A DNA stretch of 64,000 nucleotides from positions 32,001 to 96,000 of the forward strand of contig JAXHVD010000012.1 in NCBI GenBank assembly GCA_034189385.1. Direction: 5' to 3'. The stretch is from Thermodesulfobacteriota bacterium. GTDB taxonomy: Bacteria; Desulfobacterota; Desulfobacteria; Desulfobacterales; C00003060. Both the position numbers and the translations under genes were made by a program. The notes beneath the pieces are model-generated. The model saw only the letters and a program-made list of their open reading frames with translations, did not search any database and was not told the DNA's origin. Positions within the stretch are counted from its first letter, which is position 1; each line of letters begins with the position of its first letter. This document shows positions 26,647 to 57,625 of the stretch, one piece after another.

Positions 26647-27437
26647 GACCCTCCCCTACAAGCCATCACGTGCACTTATTCTGGATTCCCTTGGCCCTTC
26701 TCGCAGCAGTTTTATTCCTAACGTTTCGCAGTGATGCCAGGGCCAACGGATGGGAGGAGGTTTTTTTCAAGGCCAATCAAGCCTACAAGGAAGGGCGTTT
26801 TCAAGAGGCCATTGACGCGTATGGCCGGCTACTCGACTCAGGACATGAAAATGGGCACATTTACTACAATCTGGGCAACGCCCACTTTCGTCTCAACCAG
26901 ATCGGGCAGGCTATTTTGAACTACGAGCGGGCCGATGTCCTTATGCCCCGAGATGCAGACCTGAATTTCAACCTGGGCTATGCCCGTGATCAGACACAGG
27001 ATGCAATTTCCCAACCCAAGGGCTTTATGGACACCACCTTTTTTTGGCTCCACACCATGACCCTTCATGAACTGTCTTGGGCCTTTGTAGTCCTAAATCT
27101 TGTCTTCTGGACCGTCTTTCTTATAAGACTATTTCGCCCGTCGGAGTGGACCTTCTACACTGCTCTCATACTCCTGGTCCTCTGGTTCCTTGCCGGGGCC
27201 TCCTTTGGTGTGAAGTACTTTCAGCAACAAACCGATGACCGTGCTGTTATTCTGGCAAAAGAAGCGGATGCCCTAGCCGGCCCAGACACGGAAGACACCC
27301 TCCTTTTCAAGCTCCACGAAGGCGCAATCGTCCTCCTTGAGAGATCAGAGGATGGGTGGTCCCTGGTAAGTCTGCCGGACAATAAAAGGGGCTGGGTGAA
27401 GAAGGAGACCATTGAGAGAATAAACCAGAGGACATAG
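26643..27437 (+). CDS. batE: BatE-like TPR + SH3-like protein
   Basis: FFKANQAY, YYNLGNAHF, AILNYERA..PRDAD..FNL, two TMs, LFKLHEG...GWV. Confidence 0.9.
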   Translation: MRPSPTSHHVHLFWIPLALLAAVLFLTFRSDARANGWEEVFFKANQAYKEGRFQEAIDAYGRLLDSGHENGHIYYNLGNAHFRLNQIGQAILNYERADVLMPRDADLNFNLGYARDQTQDAISQPKGFMDTTFFWLHTMTLHELSWAFVVLNLVFWTVFLIRLFRPSEWTFYTALILLVLWFLAGASFGVKYFQQQTDDRAVILAKEADALAGPDTEDTLLFKLHEGAIVLLERSEDGWSLVSLPDNKRGWVKKETIERINQRT

Positions 27438-27595: not shown

Positions 27596-27626
27596 AAAGG
27601 CTGGGCCGAAACGACCCAGCCTTTTC
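27596..27626. terminator. Bidirectional intrinsic terminator between batE and the convergent repeat gene
   Basis: AAAGGCTGGG-N9-CCCAGCCTTTT. Confidence 0.75.
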
Positions 27627-27651: not shown

Positions 27652-30294
27652 TTAAGAACTACTCGATATCCCAAAGCCCTGTGGCGCCGAAGGTGGCACA
27701 GTGTCAGGCGACACCGTGATGGTCACGTCTTCAGAGTCACTCTGCACGGGCGTGCCATCGTCTGTCACCGTAAAGGTCACTACAAAGTCGCCTGCAACGC
27801 CATATTCCGGCGTCCAGGTAAAGGTCTGCGTGGCCTCGTCAAAGCTGGCCCCTGTGGGAACATTGTCCGCAGAATAGGTCAGACCATCGTTATCAGGATC
27901 GCTTCCTGTCACCGTGAAGGTCAGCGCCTGGCCTTCGTCTATGCTCCTTGCGCCTATGGTGGTGAGCACAGGAGGACGGTTCACGTTGCCTACCGTGATC
28001 GTCACATCTTCAGAATCACTCTGAATGGGCGTGCCACTATCGGTGACCGTAAAGGTTACAATGTAATTGCCCCCATCTCCGTAATCAGGCGTCCACGTAA
28101 AGGTCTGCGTCATCTCGTCAAAGCTCGCACCCGTGGGCACATTACCCGCACTGTAGGTCAGAGCGTCATTGTCTGGATCGCTTCCTGTCACCGTAAACGT
28201 AAGCTCCTGGCCCTCGTCTACGCTCTTAGCTCCTATAGCATTTAGCACAGGAGGACGATTCACGTCACCCACTGTGATCGTCACATCTTCAGAATCGCTC
28301 TGAATGGGCGTGCCACTATCGGTTACCGTAAAGGTTACAATGTAATTGCCCCCATCTCCGTAATCAGGCGTCCACGTAAAGGTCTGCGTCATCTCGTCAA
28401 AGCTCGCACCCGTGGGCACATTACCCGCACTGTAGGTCAGAGCGTCATTGTCTGGATCGCTTCCTGTCACCGTAAACGTAAGCTCCTGGCCCTCGTCTAC
28501 GCTCTTAGCTCCTATAGCATTTAGCACAGGAGGACGGTTCACGTCACCCACTGTGATCGTCACATCTTCAGAATCGCTCTGAACGGGCGTGCCGCTATCG
28601 GTTACCGTAAAGGTTACAATGTAATTGCCCGCATCTCCGTAATCAGGCGTCCACGTAAAGGTCTGCGTCACCTCGTCAAAGCTCGCACCTGTGGGCACAT
28701 TACCCGCACTGTAGGCCAGAGCGTCATTGTCTGGATCGCTTCCTGTCACCGTAAACGTAAGCTCCTGGCCCTCGTCTACGCTCTTAGCTCCTATAGCATT
28801 TAGCACAGGAGGACGGTTCACGTCACCCACTGTGATCGTCACATCTTCAGAATCGCTCTGAACGGGCGTGCCGCTATCGGTTACCGTAAAGGTTACAATG
28901 TAATTGCCCGCATCTCCGTAATCAGGCGTCCATGTAAAGGTCTGCGTCATCTCGTCAAAGCTCGCACCTGTGGGCACATTACCCGCACTGTAGGCCAGAG
29001 CGTCATTGTCTGGATCGCTTCCTGTCACCGTGAATGTCAGCGCCTGGCCCTCGTCTACGCTCTTAGCTCCTATAGCATTTAGCACAGGAGGACGATTCAC
29101 GTTGCCTACCGTGATCGTCACATCTTCAGAATCACTCTGAATCGGCGTGCCACTATCGGTTACCGTAAAGGTTACAATGTAATTGCCCGCATCTCCGTAA
29201 TCAGGCGTCCACGTAAAGGTCTGCGTAGTCTCGTTAAAGCTGGAACCTGTGGGCACATTACCCGCACTGTAGGCCAGAGCGTCATTGTCTGGATCGCTCG
29301 CTGTCACCGCGAATGTCAGCTCTTGGCCCTCGTCTACGCTTTTTGCGCCAATAGTGACTAGTACGGGCGGCCGATTTACATTACTTACGGTGATGGTCAC
29401 CTCTTCAGAATCAGTCTTCACTGGCGACCCGTCGTCCGTCACTGTAAAGGTCACCGTGTGATCTCCTGAGGCATTATAATCGGGCGTCCATGTAAACGTC
29501 CGCGTGGCTCCATCAAAGCTCCCACCGGAAGGAACATTCTCCGCAGCATAGGTCAGAGCGTCATTGTCTGGATCGCTTCCCGCGATAGTGAACTGAAGCA
29601 GCTGGCCTTCATCGACGCCCTTGGCGCCAATCGCGTCGAGCACGGGCGACCGGTTTACATTACTTATGGTAATCAATACATCTTCTGAGTCGTTCTTGAC
29701 AGGGGTGCCGTTGTCAGTGACCGTAAAGGTAACCGTGTAATTACCCGAAGCGGCATAGTCAGGCGTCCACGTGAAGGTCTGGGTGACCCCATCAAAGCTG
29801 GCCCCTGTGGGCACGTTGCCTGCGGTGTAGGTCAGATCATCATTATCAGGATCACTTGCCGATATAGTAAACTGAAGGGTCTGGCCTTCCTGCCCGCTTT
29901 TTGAACCTATGGTGTCAAGGACCGGCGGACGGTTAGGTATGAACATTTCTTCTACTGAATCGTCACTTTCGTTTCCTGCCAGATCAAAGGCCTTGGCCAC
30001 AAAGTAGTGCGTGACCGTGTCATCCAGATCTTCTATGGTGCAAGTCGTCTCAGTCCCTTCCCAGGCAGGGGTGCTGTAATTGAAGCTTTGCCCTTCTTCT
30101 CGATGATAGACCCTGTAACCTGCAAGATCCTCTTCGCCATTAGGATTCCAGGCAAGCGTCACGTTAACGACGGCATGGGCAGTCTGGGGAAAAAGAAAGA
30201 CCAATAAGGCCAACATCACTACGGCTGGGGACCTGAAAAAGGACCGACGACAAGTAAAGATTTCAGACAGATGTGACATGGTGGGTCGAACCAT
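27652..30294 (-). CDS. Secreted FN3 + 8 tandem Ig/cadherin-like (He_PIG-type) repeat protein, probable adhesin or fibre subunit
   Basis: Signal peptide ending AHA; FN3-like VTLAW..DLAGYRVY..YFVAKAFD..GNES; eight 93-aa NRPPVL...FTWTP...VTFTVTD units; C-terminal DTVPPSAPQGF. Confidence 0.9.
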   Translation of the reverse strand: MVRPTMSHLSEIFTCRRSFFRSPAVVMLALLVFLFPQTAHAVVNVTLAWNPNGEEDLAGYRVYHREEGQSFNYSTPAWEGTETTCTIEDLDDTVTHYFVAKAFDLAGNESDDSVEEMFIPNRPPVLDTIGSKSGQEGQTLQFTISASDPDNDDLTYTAGNVPTGASFDGVTQTFTWTPDYAASGNYTVTFTVTDNGTPVKNDSEDVLITISNVNRSPVLDAIGAKGVDEGQLLQFTIAGSDPDNDALTYAAENVPSGGSFDGATRTFTWTPDYNASGDHTVTFTVTDDGSPVKTDSEEVTITVSNVNRPPVLVTIGAKSVDEGQELTFAVTASDPDNDALAYSAGNVPTGSSFNETTQTFTWTPDYGDAGNYIVTFTVTDSGTPIQSDSEDVTITVGNVNRPPVLNAIGAKSVDEGQALTFTVTGSDPDNDALAYSAGNVPTGASFDEMTQTFTWTPDYGDAGNYIVTFTVTDSGTPVQSDSEDVTITVGDVNRPPVLNAIGAKSVDEGQELTFTVTGSDPDNDALAYSAGNVPTGASFDEVTQTFTWTPDYGDAGNYIVTFTVTDSGTPVQSDSEDVTITVGDVNRPPVLNAIGAKSVDEGQELTFTVTGSDPDNDALTYSAGNVPTGASFDEMTQTFTWTPDYGDGGNYIVTFTVTDSGTPIQSDSEDVTITVGDVNRPPVLNAIGAKSVDEGQELTFTVTGSDPDNDALTYSAGNVPTGASFDEMTQTFTWTPDYGDGGNYIVTFTVTDSGTPIQSDSEDVTITVGNVNRPPVLTTIGARSIDEGQALTFTVTGSDPDNDGLTYSADNVPTGASFDEATQTFTWTPEYGVAGDFVVTFTVTDDGTPVQSDSEDVTITVSPDTVPPSAPQGFGISSSS
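27706..29934 (-). repeat. Intragenic tandem repeat, 8 x 279 bp
   Basis: GCACAGGAGGACG recurs at 27966, 28245, 28524, 28803 and 29082 (279-bp period); central units nearly identical at DNA level. Confidence 0.97.
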
Positions 30295-31933: not shown

Positions 31934-32404
31934 CTATTCCAGTGTCAGGTCTTCCTCTGTTAAGTCTATCGTTTTCCCTTGCGCATGACGATCATGGCTG
32001 CCCACATAGTCCTTAACTTGAACCAACAAATCATGAAAAACATCACCGTAATCCCTGGCATATCTGACTTGCCCTTTTCTTAGGAGCGCCAGAAGGTCCT
32101 GAGCATATTCCTTGGAACGGCCATAGAAAACTTGGTGACGCGTAATTCCGTACTCGTTATCCAACTTGAAAAGCTCATTTTGGTGGGAGTCTTTTTCTTC
32201 CCGGTCCGATCTCAGAAGCGCCTCTTTGTGATGATTCATTTTTCGTCTCAGCTGAAGAAGTCTGATGACACCCCTCTCCATTTCCGCTTCTCGCGCCCTT
32301 TCACCCATGAACGTCGCCCCCAATTCTTGTTGGCAGATAAGTAAACCCCTCGCGTCATCAATCACAGCCTTGATGGTTACTTTATCATACTTGGGTCTGT
32401 TCAA
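31934..32404 (-). CDS. Hypothetical helical protein
   Basis: 156-aa ORF, charged and helical, co-directional with the upstream ORF; start uncertain. Confidence 0.6.
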   Translation of the reverse strand: MNRPKYDKVTIKAVIDDARGLLICQQELGATFMGERAREAEMERGVIRLLQLRRKMNHHKEALLRSDREEKDSHQNELFKLDNEYGITRHQVFYGRSKEYAQDLLALLRKGQVRYARDYGDVFHDLLVQVKDYVGSHDRHAQGKTIDLTEEDLTLE

Positions 32405-32953: not shown

Positions 32954-34669
32954 CTACTCGCAAACACCGCAGGCCTTGCAGAGATCTGTTTGGCAGGGAG
33001 GGGAAGTCTCTGCACGAAGGGCCTTCTGGTATTCCTCAATCAGATATGCTTTCCGAATCCCGTGGTCGATGAAATCCCATGGAAGGATTTCATCAAAGGG
33101 CCTTTTCCTGTGCACATAGAAATCCGGATTGACGATAGACTCCTTCAGGGTCCGGGCCCAGTTACCATCATTTCTGTGCACACCTTCCAACAATTCTGCT
33201 ACTCGCCGATCCCCGCGAGAAAGCAAGGCTTGAATGTAAGCCCACTTTGGCAGGTCGGCGTGGACTTCCACGTTGGCCACGCGCCTTAATCCGTTTTTCA
33301 CATGCTTGATCTTTACCTTTAAAACCTTCACGTCCTCCATGGGAACCCACTGAAAAGGTGTGAAGGGTTTGGGAACAAAAGAGCTGAGGCTCACGATAAT
33401 CTGGCCAATCCTTGCCTTCTTTCGGCTTATTTTCAAAAACCTGTGTTTGATCTTCTTGCACAGACTCACGATCCCTTCAACATCGGCCATTGTCTCTTCG
33501 GGAAGACCTACCATGAAGTAGAGTTTAAGGTTAGGTATACCAGCGCGCACTATCAGCTCAGTGGCTCTGAGGATATCTTCTTCGTTCACTCCCTTGTTGA
33601 TCATGCGGCGCATCTGCTCTGAGCCCCCATCTGGGGCAATGGTAGCTGTCTTTACTCCAGCTCCTTTAAGACTCTTCAGTAATTCTGGTGTGAGAAGCTC
33701 CGCCCTCAGAGAGCTAAATGAAAGTTGAAGATCAAGATCTGTGGCCCTACTACACAAGTCTTCTAGGCACGGAACATCTGAAACGGCACTAGCCATCAGT
33801 CCAGCTCGTCTTGCACCTGATGCTGCCCGGTCCAGAGAACTCTCTAGCTGGGTTGCTGTCCTGAATCGTGGCGGTCGATATACAAATCCTGCTGCGCAGA
33901 ATCTGCATCCATGTGGACACCCGCGTGCTGCCTCTATTAAATACATATCGTTAAAGGTTGTGTGCGGGGTAAGAATGGCGCTGCAGGCATTACAGGTAGA
34001 CAAGTCCTTGGCCTTCGAAGGCCTAATTTTCACCGAGAAGTTATCCTTTGGTCGGAACGCCGCAATGGTCCCATCTGGCTCATAGTCCACGTCATAGAAA
34101 CCAGGCACATACGTTCCAGAGACTTGTTGGGAAAGGGACTCCAGGAGGATCTCTCTTTGTGAACACTCCCTGTAAACACGAAAAAAATGCGGCAGGATTT
34201 CTTCTGCCTCTCCTATGAGAAAGCAGTCCACAAAAAGAGCTATAGGTTCAGGATTAAGGAGGGTTGTGACCCCCCCTGCGATAATCAGGGGGTGGGGGGT
34301 ACGTCGCTCTGAAGACCGCAGGGGGATACCAGCTCCTGCCAGGACGGTGAGGAGGTTGGCGTAATCATTTTCAAAGGAAATGGAAAAAGCAATGATGTCA
34401 AAATCAGTCAAATACCTTCCGGACTCTACGGATCTGAGATGTCCCCGGCCTTTTCCTTTCTCTTCAGGAAGGAACGCCCGTTCACACACGACATCATCAA
34501 ATCCGTTTATGAGTCTATAAACTGTCTGAAGACCAAGGTTCGACATCCCAAGGTAATAGGTGTTGGGATATGCCACCACCACAGAAATTTTGCCCCGCCA
34601 GTCCTTTCTGATAGTCCCCGTCTCTGCGCCCAGCAATTCTCTGCGGGTTCTTTGTGCCTTGCGTGACAT
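32954..34669 (-). CDS. B12-binding-like radical SAM protein (TIGR03960-like)
   Basis: YPNTYYLGMSNLG, CERAFLP, RGCPHGCRFC, KLYFMVGLPEET, FVPKPFTPFQW, LPWDFIDHG, C-terminal CxxxxCxxCGVC. Confidence 0.9.
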   Translation of the reverse strand: MSRKAQRTRRELLGAETGTIRKDWRGKISVVVAYPNTYYLGMSNLGLQTVYRLINGFDDVVCERAFLPEEKGKGRGHLRSVESGRYLTDFDIIAFSISFENDYANLLTVLAGAGIPLRSSERRTPHPLIIAGGVTTLLNPEPIALFVDCFLIGEAEEILPHFFRVYRECSQREILLESLSQQVSGTYVPGFYDVDYEPDGTIAAFRPKDNFSVKIRPSKAKDLSTCNACSAILTPHTTFNDMYLIEAARGCPHGCRFCAAGFVYRPPRFRTATQLESSLDRAASGARRAGLMASAVSDVPCLEDLCSRATDLDLQLSFSSLRAELLTPELLKSLKGAGVKTATIAPDGGSEQMRRMINKGVNEEDILRATELIVRAGIPNLKLYFMVGLPEETMADVEGIVSLCKKIKHRFLKISRKKARIGQIIVSLSSFVPKPFTPFQWVPMEDVKVLKVKIKHVKNGLRRVANVEVHADLPKWAYIQALLSRGDRRVAELLEGVHRNDGNWARTLKESIVNPDFYVHRKRPFDEILPWDFIDHGIRKAYLIEEYQKALRAETSPPCQTDLCKACGVCE

Positions 34670-34993
34670 AGGGATACACCATTTGGGATTTGAAAGCGCT
34701 TCTTCGTCTCCCAACGACGATTCACCGTTACACGGTTATGGCCCGTCCCCATCCATAACCGGCTTGTGCACTAATAGGCACTGGCGCGAGTTCGCAATAC
34801 AGTCCGCCATAAGCGGATTCGCAAGGCAAAGCAAATTCAAGGGATGGACCAGTGCGCCGACACTCTTGGCAGATCGCACAAGTGATGCCTCAGACTTGTC
34901 AGCCCCAGGCTGATTGACCCCAGAGAAATAGGCTTCCCATTCTGCCGGGTAGGCGCTGAGACTGCAGCAGACCTTCTCTGGACGAAAACCGGC

Positions 34994-36163
34994 TCAATCT
35001 GCTTTTCTTCTCATGAAGGTCGGCACTTCCAGGTCATAGCGATCCAGGGCCATCCCGCCGTACCCTATGTGTGGCGTCCGACTTGCTTCACCGATCAATT
35101 TTTCCTCTCGGAGAAACGTCGGTGTGTCTAGATCTTCATGCTTCTTTAAGTCGGCTTCTGAAATGTCGTAGAGCTTCCCTGAAAACGGCGTTTTTTTCCA
35201 GTCCCCTTCAGGCTCAATACCGGTAGCAATGACCGTGACCCTGAGTTCATCACCTACGGAGTCATCCAACACGGCACCCCAAATAATCTCTGCACTGTCT
35301 CCCGCTTCGTTATGGATAAGATCTGATGCCTCTGTCATTTCCGCCATGGTGAGATCCGTCCCGCTGGTAAGGTTCATCAGCACCCCTCGCGCTCCGGCAA
35401 CGGAGATGTCCTCTAACAGCGGATGTGATATGGCCCTTTCAGCTGCCTCCAGTGCCCGGTTTTCTCCGCTGGCGATTCCAGTTCCCATGAGGGCCATACC
35501 TGCCTTGCACATGGTGGTCCTCACGTCAGCGAAGTCAAGGTTCACGAGGCCAGGCATCATGATGAGGTCTGTAATCCCCTTCACAGAGTGAAGGAGCACC
35601 TCGTCTGCCTTCCTAAACATGTTAAGCATGGTGTCGTTTCTAGATGCCAACCCCCGAAGTCTGTCGTTAGGAATGGTGATAACCGTGTCCACCACATCCT
35701 TAAGGGCCTTAAGACCTTCTTCCGCCTGCTTCATCCGCTTCTTGCCTTCAAAACCAAATGGCTTGGTCACCACTGCCACTGTGAGGGCCCCTAACTCCTT
35801 GCTAATTTCTGCAATGACAGGGGAAGCGCCCGTGCCAGTGCCGCCGCCCAACCCGGCAGTAATAAAAACCATGTGGCTGTCCTCCACCACGTTGCGGATT
35901 GCCTCCACGCTCTCCGTGGCAGCCTGACGGCCCACTTCAGGATTTGCCCCGGCACCAAGGCCTTCAGTCAATTTCTCCCCCATCTGGATCTTCACAGGTG
36001 CCTTTGACACCTCAAGAGACTGGACGTCCGTATTGGCGCTGATGAATTTAACCCCCTGGAGTTTTGACTCAATCATGTTGTTAACAGCATTGCCACCGGC
36101 ACCACCTACCCCAATGACTTTGATCTTGGCTGATTTCTCACTTTCGACAAAACTAAACATCAT
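34994..36163 (-). CDS. ftsZ: Cell division GTPase FtsZ
   Basis: IKVIGVGGAGGNAVN, GGGTGTG, NLDFADV, C-terminal LEVPTFMRR. Confidence 0.99.
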   Translation of the reverse strand: MMFSFVESEKSAKIKVIGVGGAGGNAVNNMIESKLQGVKFISANTDVQSLEVSKAPVKIQMGEKLTEGLGAGANPEVGRQAATESVEAIRNVVEDSHMVFITAGLGGGTGTGASPVIAEISKELGALTVAVVTKPFGFEGKKRMKQAEEGLKALKDVVDTVITIPNDRLRGLASRNDTMLNMFRKADEVLLHSVKGITDLIMMPGLVNLDFADVRTTMCKAGMALMGTGIASGENRALEAAERAISHPLLEDISVAGARGVLMNLTSGTDLTMAEMTEASDLIHNEAGDSAEIIWGAVLDDSVGDELRVTVIATGIEPEGDWKKTPFSGKLYDISEADLKKHEDLDTPTFLREEKLIGEASRTPHIGYGGMALDRYDLEVPTFMRRKAD

Positions 36164-36193
36164 TGTCCCCACCTCCTGTGTCTTTTTGTCCCC

Positions 36194-37420
36194 TCAAATG
36201 ATCTCCTTAAACCATTTCTTCATGCGTGCCATGACACGATTAAAGATGTTCTTGTCCCTAATTCTGAACTTCTTCTGTGGTTGTGACCTGGCGCCGTACA
36301 CCACAAGCCCAACGGCAGTTGCGTACATAGGATTATTCACCACATCGACCAACCCTCTGATGCCCATGGGCTTTCCAATCCGTGTGGGAAGGCCGAATAT
36401 GGCCTCTGCAATATCCGAGACACCTTCTAACAGGCAAGATCCCCCGGTCACCACAACCCCTGAGGTGACTATGTCCTCCATCCCCGCCCGATAGATCTCT
36501 CGGTTGATAAGATCGAAGATTTCCTCCACCCTCGGCTCTAAGATCTCAGCTAGAATCTGCCTCGACAGGGTCCTTGGTTTGCGGCCACCAACGCCGGCGA
36601 CTTCAATAGTCTCATCCTTGCTGACATTGTCTGCCAGACAAGTGCCGTACCTTATCTTGATCTTTTCTGCCTCTGCCATGGGGGTTCTCAGTCCTACCGA
36701 CACATCATTGGTTAGATTGTTTCCGCCCACAGCCAGCACTGACGTATGTTTGATGCTCTTGCCCTTGAAGATAGCCAGATCTGTGGTCCCTCCCCCGAAG
36801 TCAATCAATGCCGCACCTAGGTCTTTTTCTTCTTTGTTCAGCACTGCGTCACTAGATGCCAGACTCTGCAACACGATATCGCACACATCAAGACCGGCAC
36901 GATTGGCGCACTTTACTAGGTTGTGGGCTGAGGTGACAGCACCGGTCACGATATGGATCTTCGCCTCCAGCCGAACTCCTGACATGCCCAGGGGGTCCTG
37001 GATGCCACCCTGTTCGTCCACTATGAACTCCTGGGGGAGCACATGAATGACCTCGCGGTCCGGGGGAATGGCTACAGCACGTGCCGCATCAATGACGCGT
37101 TCAATGTCCTTCTGCGTGACCTCACTTCCCTTAACGGCAACGATGCCATGGCTATTAAACCCCTTGATGTGCCCGCCTGCAATACCAGCATAGACTGACG
37201 TGATCTCACAACCTGCCATCAACTCCGCCTCTTCTATGGCTCTTTTTATGGAGTCAACCGTTGATTCGATGTTCACCACAACACCTTTGCGAAGACCCAC
37301 CGAAGGATGGGTGCCAAGTCCTACAATATCGATCCCGTCTGGATTGACTTCACCTACCACTGCACAAATCTTCGTTGTGCCAATATCCAGACCAACGACA
37401 AGACCTTCGTCTCCCTGCAC
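36194..37420 (-). CDS. ftsA: Cell division protein FtsA
   Basis: VGLDIGTTKI, GMSGVRLE, IDFGGGTTD, YATAVGL, C-terminal amphipathic helix WFKEII. Confidence 0.98.
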   Translation of the reverse strand: MQGDEGLVVGLDIGTTKICAVVGEVNPDGIDIVGLGTHPSVGLRKGVVVNIESTVDSIKRAIEEAELMAGCEITSVYAGIAGGHIKGFNSHGIVAVKGSEVTQKDIERVIDAARAVAIPPDREVIHVLPQEFIVDEQGGIQDPLGMSGVRLEAKIHIVTGAVTSAHNLVKCANRAGLDVCDIVLQSLASSDAVLNKEEKDLGAALIDFGGGTTDLAIFKGKSIKHTSVLAVGGNNLTNDVSVGLRTPMAEAEKIKIRYGTCLADNVSKDETIEVAGVGGRKPRTLSRQILAEILEPRVEEIFDLINREIYRAGMEDIVTSGVVVTGGSCLLEGVSDIAEAIFGLPTRIGKPMGIRGLVDVVNNPMYATAVGLVVYGARSQPQKKFRIRDKNIFNRVMARMKKWFKEII

Positions 37421-37422
37421 TT

Positions 37423-38280
37423 TCACACCTCCTTTCGACAGCACATCTTTAAGGCAGACCCACCCTCTGATGGCCTGACCACCACGCGGTCCACATCCTT
37501 CAGATGTATGTAATCAATATTCAAAGCCTTACCATCCTGTTTGAAATGGGACATCAACTCCCCCAACCGGTTGAATTTTGAACTGTAATCCTCAAACCCC
37601 AGGTTTATGGCCACATTGCAGTCAAATGCAAAAAGGGTAAGTCCTGTATCCGTATCTGCCTGAATGCGATGGAGCATATGGACGGGCAAGACGCTTCCGT
37701 GAAGTCGGCTCAGGTGAAGGACTTTCATGACGGCCCCAAATATCTTGGACTCTGTTTGGTTTTCAGGATCAGTGTCTGCAAGTGTTAGTCCCGTCACCAA
37801 CGGCACGTTTATCTGGTCAGAAGTCTGGGCTGGCGCCACAATTTCCCCTGTGTCATCTAGATAGAAGGTTTTGCTTAGCTCAATTTTGGCAATAGGCACC
37901 CGTTCAGTGACTCGAATGTGAATCTTGTCAGGCAACTCTCGCCACACGTCGGCCGTCGTAATCCAAGGATTCGCCATAAGCCGATAGCGAAGCACCTTCA
38001 AGTTTATTTCCAAGATGTTATCGCCTGGTCTCACCTCGGCTTCGTTAAGAATCGCCTCTTTGGAGAGCCTTCGGTTTCCCTCCACAACGATCTCACGGGC
38101 ATTAAAGCATGAACTCTGCATCAGGGCATCATGGCCTAGAATAAAAAGAAGACTCGCCCCCCCCATGGCGGCCAACAAACACAATATCTTCATAGACATG
38201 ATAAAGCGTCTTATGAGCCGTTCTCGTCTGCGCGCCGGGCTGTTTTTATAGTAATTCTTACGAACCTGCTTCCTGGCCAA
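37423..38280 (-). CDS. ftsQ: Cell division protein FtsQ/DivIB
   Basis: Basic N-terminus, TM, POTRA domain (VEGNRRLS...PWI...RELPD...ERVP); upstream of ftsA. Confidence 0.92.
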   Translation of the reverse strand: MARKQVRKNYYKNSPARRRERLIRRFIMSMKILCLLAAMGGASLLFILGHDALMQSSCFNAREIVVEGNRRLSKEAILNEAEVRPGDNILEINLKVLRYRLMANPWITTADVWRELPDKIHIRVTERVPIAKIELSKTFYLDDTGEIVAPAQTSDQINVPLVTGLTLADTDPENQTESKIFGAVMKVLHLSRLHGSVLPVHMLHRIQADTDTGLTLFAFDCNVAINLGFEDYSSKFNRLGELMSHFKQDGKALNIDYIHLKDVDRVVVRPSEGGSALKMCCRKEV

Positions 38281-54322: not shown

Positions 54323-55087
54323 TCACAGTTGGCCCAGCATCAGCTGTATGGCCGCACTTGCTAAGCCTGTGGCCTTCGAATTTGGGTCTGACGGGTCACA
54401 GCCTCTTCGACACTCCGTCCCATCTGACTGACCGTCCCCGTCCGAATCCCTGTCCACCAGGTTAATGAGTCCGTCATTGTCATCATCGGCATCCCACTCC
54501 TCACCCCAGTAAGCCAACTCGTCGCCATCATTGAGTCCGTCACCGTCAGTATCCATTCTGTCTGGATCAGTCCCATATTCATTTATCTCATCATAGTCTG
54601 CTATTCCATCCCCGTCCCTGTCCGCTGGTATGAAAGTATAGGTTACCTCGTCAGAATATCCACTTTGATTGCCATACTCATCATAAGCGGTAGCAGCAAA
54701 GTAGTAGGTCTGGCCGTCTTCAAAACGTGATTCTGAGATGGCGCAAGTCGTATAGTCTCCCACATCAACACTCCATACATAGTCTCCACTAGATGTTCCG
54801 TAGTAAACCATATAGCCGGCGAGATCGGGCTCTGGATTGGCGCTCCATTCCAATATGACTACAGCAGAATAGGCCGAGCTAGGAATGAACATCAAGGCTA
54901 TTGGCAAAACACATGTGAAGGCTAAGGACCTGGCCAGTGCAAAGAATGGAATGAATAGCGAGAAAGGAAACACCAGGCGCAACGCGCGAGGATCAAGCAA
55001 CCGGTTGCATAAAGACACATGAGCAAGCCCTTTGTGTGAAGCCTTTTTGCCAGCTTCGTTTGTGTTTGACTCAGCAAACGCTGACAT
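54323..55087 (-). CDS. Secreted FN3-like protein with bacterial TSP3-like Ca-binding repeats
   Basis: Hydrophobic signal ending AYS; VILEW..EPDLAGYMVYYG..YYFAATAYD..GNQS; DxDGDGxxDxxE repeats; GGAGG RBS before ATG 55087. Confidence 0.85.
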   Translation of the reverse strand: MSAFAESNTNEAGKKASHKGLAHVSLCNRLLDPRALRLVFPFSLFIPFFALARSLAFTCVLPIALMFIPSSAYSAVVILEWSANPEPDLAGYMVYYGTSSGDYVWSVDVGDYTTCAISESRFEDGQTYYFAATAYDEYGNQSGYSDEVTYTFIPADRDGDGIADYDEINEYGTDPDRMDTDGDGLNDGDELAYWGEEWDADDDNDGLINLVDRDSDGDGQSDGTECRRGCDPSDPNSKATGLASAAIQLMLGQL

Positions 55088-55148
55088 CAGAGCACCTCCG
55101 TAGTTCCCTGAGCCGCGTAGACCGCAGCACTCTGGAGATGCTGAATCC

Positions 55149-55240
55149 ACCCGGCAGCCCTGCTGCCATACCCGCCTCTGGCGGCCTTAGGCCAGCGACT
55201 TTGCGTCCCACCCTTTCGGATGGTTTGCCTTTTTCGGACG
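55149..55240 (-). ncRNA. c-di-GMP-I (GEMM-I) riboswitch aptamer
   Basis: Minus strand GGCAAACCATCC-GAAA-GGGTGGGACGCAAAG...GCCTAAGG...TATGGCAGCAGGGCTGCCG: P2 with GNRA loop, tetraloop receptor and the conserved junctions; lies in the 5' leader of 54323-55087. Confidence 0.95.
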
Positions 55241-55561: not shown

Positions 55562-55608
55562 GAGCATCTCAAGACATGAGAACAAATTGGCTAAGACAAG
55601 GGGGCATA

Positions 55609-56058
55609 ATGAGATTATTTAATGTATCAGGAAAGTTGGCTTTTCTGTTCATCGTGCTAGGCATTTTTCTGCCCTGTGAGATTGCCCAGCAAGCCGTGAA
55701 TTTCCCCAAAGCATACGCACAAGAGGAGTCCTTCAACCCGGATACCCGGGTATTCACTCTTGCCAACAACAATGATGCGGCGCCAATACGAGTAGGCGAA
55801 ACGTTTCACATCGTCCTGGAGGCGAACCCAAGCACGGGCTACTCCTGGCACGTTGGCGGGGTCGACACCTCCATTTTGCAGACAGGGAAAGTGAAGTTTC
55901 AACGCACCTCTGAACTGTTGGGAGCCCCTGAAGAGCAAATCATTCCTTTTTCTGCCTTAAAGAGTGGGAACACCACTGTAGACCTGCGCTACATGAGACC
56001 TTGGGAGAAACAGAGTCGGTTGCAGAATTACATTATAAACGTGATGGTAGCAAAATAG
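55609..56058 (+). CDS. Chagasin-family (I42) cysteine peptidase inhibitor, secreted
   Basis: Loop motifs NPSTGYSW, LLGAP and YMRPWE; N-terminal signal. Confidence 0.92.
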   Translation: MRLFNVSGKLAFLFIVLGIFLPCEIAQQAVNFPKAYAQEESFNPDTRVFTLANNNDAAPIRVGETFHIVLEANPSTGYSWHVGGVDTSILQTGKVKFQRTSELLGAPEEQIIPFSALKSGNTTVDLRYMRPWEKQSRLQNYIINVMVAK

Positions 56059-56074
56059 ACAGAGGGAAAAGAAG

Positions 56075-57625
56075 ATGAGGAGACTAAACGCTGCCCTGAT
56101 TATATGTCTAGGTTTCTTCTTCGGTCTATGCGGTCTTGTCCAAGGGACAGATCTTCCCACGAGATGGGATTGGAGAAACCACAACGGCGTCACAGCAGTC
56201 AGGAATCAGGGTTCCTGCGGGTCCTGTTGGGCCTTTGCCTCAGCGGCCACCATGGAATCTGCAATCCTGATCAATGACGGGTCTGAAGTCAACCTTTCCG
56301 AACAGCATCTTGTGTCCTGCAACCTTAATGGTTGGGGTTGTGGGGGTGGATGGATAGCCCTTCCATACTACTTAAATAGACAAGACTCCACCGGAGAAAT
56401 CGGCACCGTCATGGAATCGTGCTTTGCTTATTTAGCATCAAATGTAGCCTGCACGTGCGCGGGGTGTGATCGTGTTCATGAGCTTCTCGACTGGGGGCTT
56501 GTTCCCGGTGCCACTTATTGGAGTCCCCCTAGCGATGAGCAACTGAAGACCTACATCTACACCTACGGGCCTATTTTTGCTGCCTTGGACACGCACACGT
56601 GGTGTTTGCTAAACCCCAGTACGGGGGCATCGGGTTCATGCAGCGGAAATAACGGAGAGTGCAATCATGCTATTTTGATCGTGGGTTGGGATGATGATTT
56701 TAAAGGCAGTGGGAACGGATGCTGGATCATCAAGAATTCCTGGAATACGTGGTGGCAAGACGGCGGATTTGGATATGTCAAATACGGCACCGGTAGCGTG
56801 GGAACGGCCGCTTCTTGGGTAGAGTATTATGGCGCCGGTGGTCTGGAGTGCGACAACGCCATAGACCTGACCCCTTATCATCCCTATGACGGGACCACGG
56901 TAGGGGGCGCGTCCAGAGTTGATGCATATAGCTGTGACGACAACTTAACGGGCCCTGAAAAGGTCCATCGCATCACCACCACCACAGATGGTGACATTGC
57001 TGCAACGCTTAGCAATCATGCGGTCAATCTGGATGTGCTCATCCTCAGTGCCTGCGACTCTGATACCTGCTATGACTATGCCTCAGGAACTGGTAGCATC
57101 ACTGCTACCTATCCAAATGCCCCGGCAGGGACCTATTACATAGTGGTGGATGGTAGCTATGGTGCCAGCGGCTCATACACCCTCACCGTAGCAACGGGCT
57201 TAGACTGCGCAAGCGCTGTCAGCTTATCCCCCCGCGTAGCCTATGACGGGAACACGTCGGAAGGACCCTCTATGATCCATTCATATACGGGTACAGGCGG
57301 TTCTTATGAGAATATGACAGGCCCTGAGAGCCTCCATAAAATTATCGCATTCAAAGGCGGTGGAGACGTTACAGCAACCTTAAACGCCGGTCACGCATCG
57401 GGCCTTGAAGTCTTTATCGTGAGACCCTGTGACCCGGCTAGCTGCCTTGCCCATGCTTCTGGGACGGGGGAAATCACGGCGACCTATCCCAATGCTCCTG
57501 TTGGGACCTATTTTATTGTGGTAGATGGCAGCTATGGGGCCAGCGGATCATACACCCTCACTGCAAATGCCCTTTGGGCGGCAGGGAAAGGCCTGCCGTG
57601 GGTGAACTCCTTGTTGCTGGAATAG
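56075..57625 (+). CDS. Papain-family (C1A) cysteine peptidase with two PPC-like C-terminal domains
   Basis: LPTRWDWR, QGSCGSCWAF (catalytic Cys), LSEQHLVSC, NHAILIVGW (His), IKNSW (Asn); duplicated GTY(Y/F)IVVDGSYGASGSYTLT domain. Confidence 0.95.
   Translation: MRRLNAALIICLGFFFGLCGLVQGTDLPTRWDWRNHNGVTAVRNQGSCGSCWAFASAATMESAILINDGSEVNLSEQHLVSCNLNGWGCGGGWIALPYYLNRQDSTGEIGTVMESCFAYLASNVACTCAGCDRVHELLDWGLVPGATYWSPPSDEQLKTYIYTYGPIFAALDTHTWCLLNPSTGASGSCSGNNGECNHAILIVGWDDDFKGSGNGCWIIKNSWNTWWQDGGFGYVKYGTGSVGTAASWVEYYGAGGLECDNAIDLTPYHPYDGTTVGGASRVDAYSCDDNLTGPEKVHRITTTTDGDIAATLSNHAVNLDVLILSACDSDTCYDYASGTGSITATYPNAPAGTYYIVVDGSYGASGSYTLTVATGLDCASAVSLSPRVAYDGNTSEGPSMIHSYTGTGGSYENMTGPESLHKIIAFKGGGDVTATLNAGHASGLEVFIVRPCDPASCLAHASGTGEITATYPNAPVGTYFIVVDGSYGASGSYTLTANALWAAGKGLPWVNSLLLE

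Follow-up and report, generated by a model that had tools for sequence, protein, structure and literature searches.

The 64,000-nt window analysed here (positions 32,001 to 96,000 of the forward strand of contig JAXHVD010000012.1, assembly GCA_034189385.1, from a Thermodesulfobacteriota bacterium of the Desulfobacterales) carries on its reverse strand, at 27652..30294, a gene of 880 codons plus stop, as given by the open reading frame (ORF) list and its translation (protein P0001). Four parts can be distinguished in the 880-residue product: a signal peptide, an FN3 domain present from strand B on, eight He_PIG repeats and a 17-residue tail, DTVPPSAPQGFGISSSS. Comparison with homologous sequences gives good support to a reading in which a single FN3 fold is split between the two ends of this one protein. 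An earlier note on this DNA (the original prediction) had proposed such a split, together with polymerisation into a surface fibre by strand donation; the structural reading held up in the sequence comparisons, the surface fibre being the more speculative part of the proposal. The gene is solitary, with a convergent operon on one side and a 1-kb spacer on the other.

A Sec signal peptide is predicted at residues 1-41 (30172..30294, reverse strand). The N-terminus displays a charged n-region and a hydrophobic core leading to AHA|VV, the cleavage site given by the -3/-1 rule, and homologues have equivalent AxA-type sites 2-3 residues ahead of their VTLxW motif. The mature protein is predicted to start at V42, with VVNVTLAW. 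A Tat signal was rejected, as the RR of CRRSFF is not conserved among homologues, and so was a lipoprotein, as no cysteine is found at the predicted cleavage site. At its other end the protein reads ...SPDTVPPSAPQGFGISSSS (also quoted as ...VTITVSPDTVPPSAPQGFGISSSS). No hydrophobic C-terminal segment was found on reading the sequence, and P0001 matched no NCBIfam sorting domain, CFI-box-CTERM (NF041770) included, in agreement with the earlier claim that the protein has no transmembrane segment or other anchor at its C-terminus. An outer-membrane beta-signal, a motif with a terminal aromatic residue, was also rejected, given that the tails end hydrophilic and not in an aromatic residue.

The end of the gene was inspected as well. 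About 30 nt past the stop codon lies a terminator-like hairpin (27596..27624, reverse strand) of 13 bp followed by the U-run UUUCUU, with a computed folding energy of -31.5 kcal/mol and a z of -2.7; it was seen in the sequence and in the fold and was missed by a pattern scan. Because of this hairpin and of a convergent neighbouring ORF ending at 27437, the gene end is taken to be genuine. A truncated gene was rejected on the basis of the terminator and of the end point that the homologues share.

The N-terminal FN3 domain occupies residues 42-120 (29935..30171, reverse strand) and, judged from the Pfam fn3 profile and from an AlphaFold2 (AF2) model of the homologue at locus L034, consists of strands B to G only, without strand A. 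Searched whole, the 880-residue protein gave no fn3 match in Pfam at E<=0.1; residues 42-127 matched fn3 (PF00041) with 21.1 bits (E 3.8e-4), which is below the curated cut-off of 25 bits. Since homologous domains pass this cut-off (29.7 bits for L034, 32.1 for P0346 and 27.8 for P0355), the domain is best regarded as a divergent, truncated member of the family. In the profile alignment, residues 4-65 of the mature domain fall on profile positions 16-72 of 84, and positions 1-15, the strand A region, have no counterpart. The VTLxW motif is strand B, and the mature domain, with the predicted cleavage site, begins there. Both observations bear out the strand-A-less domain of the original prediction, and AF2 models the homologue's FN3 with six strands, one fewer than the seven (A-B-C-C'-E-F-G) that define the fold. 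A profile search of the PDB returned ordinary FN3 domains only, with 1k85_A at the top (2.2e-6); the tail part of the profile was aligned in it to strand A of FN3con (4u3h_A residues 12-26), at a non-significant -1.2 bits.

Residues 121-863 (27706..29934, reverse strand) form eight tandem He_PIG repeats, cadherin/PKD-like immunoglobulin (Ig) domains of about 93 residues each. Pfam recognised eight He_PIG (PF05345) stretches with 331.5 bits (cut-off 24), in line with the eight Ig-like repeats claimed earlier, and Tandem Repeats Finder reported a 279-nt period with 7.7 copies and 86% matches.

The tail spans residues 864-880 (27655..27705, reverse strand), a position that the original prediction gave correctly, although the sequence it quoted was short by two S. 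Comparison of residues 42-125 with 1.84 billion representative proteins yielded 8,431 matches at E<=0.001, the top ones being mostly giant proteins with many tandem FN3 copies. In these arrays a PPxxPxxLxx segment stands ahead of the internal FN3 copies, and strand A is missing only from the copy that directly follows the signal peptide. A loose tail pattern caught chiefly proline-rich ends, and a strand-A matrix was used instead, built from 469 unique 22-residue segments ahead of internal copies of the same FN3 subtype in 100 proteins; its consensus reads DTTPPAAPTGLTATAGDGQ|VTLxW. Against this matrix, the tail scored 15.6 bits, occupying positions -19..-3, and the VVN of the mature N-terminus occupies positions -3..-1. 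Taken together, tail and VVN exceed the uncut A-B connection by one residue. Mature copies joined end to end would restore the usual layout of a tandem array, except for an A-B loop that is nicked and longer by one residue. From the matrix score and the aligned homologue tails, it is well supported that the tail is an inter-domain linker plus strand A of the same FN3 subtype as the N-terminal domain, ending in the A-B loop, and the earlier claim that the C-terminus carries the missing strand is upheld.

The specificity of this score was assessed in the source genome. Of the 10,274 stop-to-stop frames that span 100 residues or more, the 880-residue frame ranks third for tail score, behind two poly-proline frames, and it is the sole frame having both the tail and the N-terminal motif. 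The median score was 11.0 bits for 45 hand-listed tails and -1.7 bits for 115 He_PIG proteins retrieved with a C-terminal query.

Homologues were collected by searches with residues 1-125, which gave one set of near-length and one of shorter proteins, and from loci of relatives' genomes. At least 46 relatives hold both the strand-A-less FN3 and the tail, 42 of them with zero to five He_PIG repeats. The number of He_PIG repeats between the two ends is zero in 21 proteins of 111-146 residues with both ends present, one in L034, P0321, P0324 and P0328, two in P0315, P0317, P0319 and P0334, three in P0091, P0313, P0318, P0320, P0322 and P0323, four in P0004, P0007, P0009 and P0314, five in P0002, P0006, P0010 and P0228, and eight in the window protein. 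Four of the relatives have other middles, with PKD domains in three (P0024, the 800-residue protein of L064 and the two-FN3, P0213-like L213) and a mixed architecture in P0030. Relatives 82-85% identical over the first 125 residues contain 3, 4, 5 or 8 repeats with the tail type unchanged, and across the homologues the tail pattern and its end point stay constant while tail sequence and repeat number vary.

In the two sets obtained with residues 1-125, the tail is present in 44 of the 102 FN3-first proteins, a count made after hand correction (three false positives out, three false negatives in). Wherever a tail bearer was seen with its N-terminus complete, it has the strand-A-less FN3 too. 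The co-occurrence to be surveyed in homologues came out one-sided: in every case seen the tail accompanies an acceptor FN3, but most FN3-first proteins are tail-less. All homologue tails stop in the A-B loop and none runs on into a full FN3; for this reason, the explanation by simple truncation, which the original prediction had named among its possible refutations, fails. A counter-search with residues 770-880 retrieved 116 further proteins, among which a strand-like tail was found only in P0228, itself FN3-first, and in none of the remaining 115. Scores of 8 bits are reached by four of these 115, whose ends are all hydrophilic and rich in proline, and two of the 115, P0290 and P0293, are FN3-first with aberrant ends. 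Likewise, the tail was found in none of 105 proteins without an N-terminal FN3 from the search with residues 42-125, one poly-proline end fitting the loose pattern.

A possible origin of this arrangement is the excision, at the A-B loop, of a unit from a larger FN3-repeat tandem array, in which case the tail could be an unstructured leftover or have an unrelated role. Tail and N-terminus do make up one period of such an array, and strand-A-less FN3 domains are common without a tail. In P0003, moreover, an FN3-plus-PKD module is duplicated from about residue 480, and its second FN3 begins at VTLEW without strand A; therefore, unit duplication in this phase does occur. A vestige would nevertheless hardly be expected to preserve its pattern and end point through changes of sequence and repeat number, to show covarying cysteines (see below), or to be confined as it is, such an end being found in 0 of the 115 proteins of the C-terminal query. 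The tail is also found with He_PIG repeats, with PKD domains and with no repeats at all. A quick tree built from 104 FN3 domains is weakly resolved; on it, the tail label takes 12 changes, at least three of them forced by well-supported branches, and the tail occurs on both sides of the deepest split. We consider a vestigial tail the least probable of the three alternatives weighed here.

Single-domain forms were also encountered in phages. Their look-alikes in the Atlas bear a viral label, and a scan of viral contigs (IMG/VR, L149-L228) gave 80 loci with 46 distinct single-domain ORFs. The strand-A core motif reaches at least 6 bits after the FN3 body in 24 of these 46, nine of which end within 12 residues past the motif. 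Six of the loci were examined with PHROGs and proved to be real phages, carrying genes for integrase, primase, terminase, tail and lysis functions. At L153 (4929-5291) the single-domain FN3 gene is immediately upstream of an endolysin gene, and at L151 (4818-5285) it is two genes upstream of an amidase gene.

The ends of these small proteins are diverse. In the viral loci L155, L159, L160, L165, L173, L174, L176, L187, L214 and L220, the PPxxPxxL segment leads into a helix-like stretch of amphipathic or hydrophobic character, e.g. ...PKNLRIWIAQAIAWILRHLKFWG, and is not the C-terminus. P0363-P0365, L154 and L178 have an APGVPxxFRL strand-A motif and then about 25 residues resembling a further beta-hairpin; their tails may supply more than one strand. 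Small FN3-first proteins from viral contigs (L162, L163, L177 and L184) and from genomes (L080, L112 and L128) end in DxNxDGxVNxxDLQ..., which looks like dockerin-type repeats.

Cysteine pairs, read directly from the homologue sequences, bear on the contact between the two ends. In six single-domain relatives, a cysteine among the four leading residues of the predicted mature protein is accompanied by one among the six final residues. Four of them (P0338, P0351, P0353 and P0357) start with a DC(S/T)VTLEW-like sequence and end in ...C(N/D/AP). P0360 and P0362 carry the N-terminal cysteine three residues further down strand B (VCLEW), and their tail has its cysteine two residues earlier (NLRIIDC). 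Opposite shifts of this kind are expected for antiparallel neighbours, if the tail ends next to where strand B starts. The pattern is not fitted by P0361, which has the N-terminal cysteine only, or by P0340 and P0346, whose tail cysteine is elsewhere.

These pairs fit a contact within one molecule as well as one between molecules. In the former case, the tail would return to its own FN3 and close it as a circularly permuted, discontinuous domain, with the repeats as a loop or ring and no polymer. The phage-borne forms provide some support for this closure in cis, as 15 of the 24 single-domain ORFs with the motif run more than 12 residues beyond it, which fits an internal fold element. The AF2 monomer of the zero-repeat P0355 (102 residues) also forms a tail strand (E93-98) in cis. 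The mean predicted local distance difference test score (pLDDT) of this model is 76, but the tail strand itself is near 53 and the preceding linker below 50; by this model, closure in cis of single-domain forms is possible but has weak support.

For forms with repeats, the model of the one-repeat L034 homologue (189 residues, 26-row alignment) has a mean pLDDT of 93.3 and a predicted template modelling score (pTM) of 0.72. It comprises the FN3, a folded He_PIG domain and tail residues 171-189 without secondary structure, at a pLDDT of about 70. Foldseek comparison with the PDB gave generic tandem Ig and cadherin matches only, and both domains of the model match extended pairs jointly, e.g. cadherin EC1-2 (query-based template modelling score, TMq, 0.42-0.50; 176-207 columns). 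As both domains align to extended pairs, the tail cannot reach its own FN3 in this model. The repeat numbers 0, 1, 2, 3, 4, 5 and 8 obey no parity rule, whereas a hairpin-type closure in cis would favour odd numbers. A circle would, in addition, demand bending of eight short-linked repeats, and in P0340 and P0346 the PP of the tail follows the G strand after only about three residues. Closure in cis is consequently judged unlikely. Completion by another molecule, one of the two outcomes foreseen in the original prediction, is favoured by the unpaired tail and extended domains of the L034 model and by the lack of an odd/even preference.

The second partner of such a contact could be a tail-less relative, and three more FN3-first proteins, all tail-less, are encoded in the source genome. 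One lies in the window (54323-55150, reverse strand) and consists of a signal peptide, a strand-A-less FN3 and bacterial TSP3 repeats (40.1 bits); the others are a 926-residue protein with a Glce beta-sandwich and TSP3, and a 582-residue protein with TSP3 and a 3-keto-disaccharide-hydrolase-like module. Elsewhere, the acceptor-only relatives P0022 (99.8 bits) and P0183 (84.7 bits) match CFI-box-CTERM and choice-of-anchor U in NCBIfam, and further tail-less relatives end in C-terminal transmembrane segments or carry lectin-like or TSP3 modules. A glycine run followed by GCFI(S/A)T stands at the C-terminus of P0012, P0022, P0183, P0347, P0358 and P0370, and of proteins at L054, L059, L060 and L063. 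NCBIfam identifies this end as CFI-box-CTERM, often after a choice-of-anchor U domain; the term CFI-box-CTERM was not found in the literature searched. At L031 (3865-4122 and 5722-5979, forward strand), two adjacent genes are identical in their signal peptides and FN3 domains; the product of one ends in a membrane segment, and that of the other goes on into He_PIG repeats and is cut by the contig end. This looks like recent copying of the acceptor domain between an anchored and a repeat-type member.

With such partners, the tail might serve for anchoring only, as a C-terminal plug inserted into the FN3 of anchored or matrix-bound acceptor-only relatives, with no homopolymers being formed. The majority standing of acceptor-only proteins, the anchors of P0022 and P0183 or the transmembrane ends of others, the L031 gene pair and the three acceptor-only members in the source genome are all consistent with this. 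Plain anchoring, however, makes the acceptor domain that all tail bearers seen with a complete N-terminus possess needless, and a CFI-box protein was not found in the source genome. Anchoring is also compatible with polymers, and as the exclusive function of the tail it appears slightly less probable still than closure in cis.

On balance, we lean towards a tail that inserts into the N-terminal FN3 of another molecule, subunits being joined head to tail. The protein combines an incomplete beta-sandwich with a matching spare strand elsewhere in the subunit, as donor-strand systems generally do. Once Sec had exported the protein and the signal peptide was removed, strand B would have an exposed edge and the core would be partly open; the tail of a second molecule would then pair antiparallel with strand B. 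Its recipient could be the same protein or an acceptor-only relative. Each joint would resemble an ordinary He_PIG-to-FN3 junction nicked in the A-B loop, and repeated joining would lead to a non-covalent, linear fibre that repeats about every nine domains. The tail-less acceptor relatives would act as chain ends that accept a tail, some of them carrying CFI-box-CTERM or transmembrane anchors and others lectin-like or TSP3 modules.

Several observations weigh against this head-to-tail assembly. The proportion of 44 in 102 is inflated because the query favours the clade of the window protein. In relatives' genomes, 37 motif ORFs were found, 26 of them with a stop inside the fetched DNA (three of these ending in masked letters), and the tail is present in just two of the 26 (L034 and L064); in 78 loci of species-representative genomes, none of 83 motif ORFs reaches 6 bits, the best scoring 4.8. 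A strand-A-less FN3 after a signal peptide is common and the majority of FN3-first proteins are tail-less, so the domain is probably viable alone. The He_PIG-type tail bearers all fall in one clade and therefore count as one lineage, not many. The tail strand formed in cis by the P0355 model points in the same direction. Strand A is an edge strand, whose absence need not open a deep groove as in pilins. As for the genetic context, the neighbouring genes look unrelated to the split-FN3 gene, and the source genome (90.4% complete) contains no match to Usher (PF00577), PapD_N (PF00345) or P_gingi_FimA (PF06321) and no CFI-box match. No machinery for assembly or for export past the periplasm was found.

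Head-to-tail joining in trans is still what we infer as the best explanation for the eight-repeat protein, at a confidence little better than even. A broader proposal, which we hold more tentatively and with doubt somewhat outweighing belief, is that the family represents a new class of self-assembling fibre, a "split FN3 clasp" whose period is set by 0-8 Ig-like spacers and which forms without chaperone or usher. In this broader proposal, the tail would be an extra choice of anchor beside CFI-box and membrane anchors, and the same clasp would serve Desulfobacterales-type bacteria of sediments and, as a one-domain version, many phages.

Should the tail indeed plug into the FN3 of a neighbour, assembly by strand donation would be extended to the most common extracellular fold, in an unusual geometry with a C-terminal donor of the first strand and a tunable rod between acceptor and donor. 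It would account for the widespread and so far unremarked FN3 domains that lack strand A directly after signal peptides, and partners could be sought by a simple rule, with tail bearers on one side and acceptor-only proteins on the other. It would also constitute a natural, genetically encoded protein polymer of programmable length. The one-domain forms of phages, some adjoining lysis genes, pose the separate question of their use by the phage.

Other genes were noted in the window. On the reverse strand, at 34994-37444, ORFs have translations resembling FtsZ and FtsA. A radical-SAM-like ORF is found at 32954-34714. On the forward strand, at 55576-57625, a 160-residue secreted protein is followed by a 516-residue protein containing QGSCGSCWAF, presumably a papain-family cysteine peptidase, perhaps preceded by an inhibitor gene.

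No description of an FN3 split in this manner was found in the literature searched, which covered few subscription journals. Engineered circular permutants of FN3 and monobody scaffolds suggest that the fold tolerates moved termini (10.1101/2023.03.28.534597, PMC6288478). These are artificial single domains closed in cis, unlike natural proteins with inserted repeats. Closer in sequence, the internal FN3 copies of giant surface-protein arrays share the domain, and the tail equals their linker plus strand A; their strand A and strands B-G are contiguous, whereas those of the window protein are 820 residues apart, at the termini. CFI-box-CTERM and choice-of-anchor U proteins (NF041770, NF041766) likewise have a signal peptide and a strand-A-less N-terminal FN3, but end in a sorting or anchor domain in place of the strand-A tail, and P0001 matches neither family.

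Among systems that assemble by strand donation, the subunits of archaeal cannulae (CanA), threads, bundling pili and TasA have one or two domains and N-terminal donors, and we know of none for which an FN3 split by a repeat spacer of variable length has been described. These secreted beta-sandwiches are reported to self-assemble by strand donation without a dedicated machine (10.1101/2024.12.30.630787, 10.1101/2022.04.26.489512, PMC12337348, PMC10516879). From chaperone-usher pili, the window protein differs in that it misses the N-terminal edge strand A and has a C-terminal donor, and neither of the two families searched for, PF00577 and PF00345, has a match in the source genome. Chaperone-usher pili are non-covalent linear polymers of subunits in which the C-terminal G strand is missing, leaving a deep groove that is filled by a donated N-terminal extension, and they need both a chaperone and an usher. 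In Pap, Fim and Caf1, the incomplete Ig-like fold is completed by a strand of the next subunit, as outlined in PMC13655056.

By our analysis, these strand-donation systems are alike in principle, the 880-residue protein falling outside the families that define each of them, and the type V pili of Bacteroidia (FimA, Mfa1) appear the closest. Type V pilins, opened by a gingipain, are lipoproteins built of two transthyretin-like domains, whereas the window protein has an FN3 fold, no lipobox cysteine at its cleavage site, no match to PF06321 and no prodomain strand, and its family inserts zero to eight Ig-like repeats between acceptor and donor. In type V pili, C-terminal donor strands replace a proteolytically removed N-terminal strand and the tip pilins are without donor strands, as stated in the same source (PMC13655056). 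In a similar way, signal-peptide cleavage would vacate the N-terminal strand position of the window protein and a C-terminal strand would fill it, and acceptor-only relatives are found here too.

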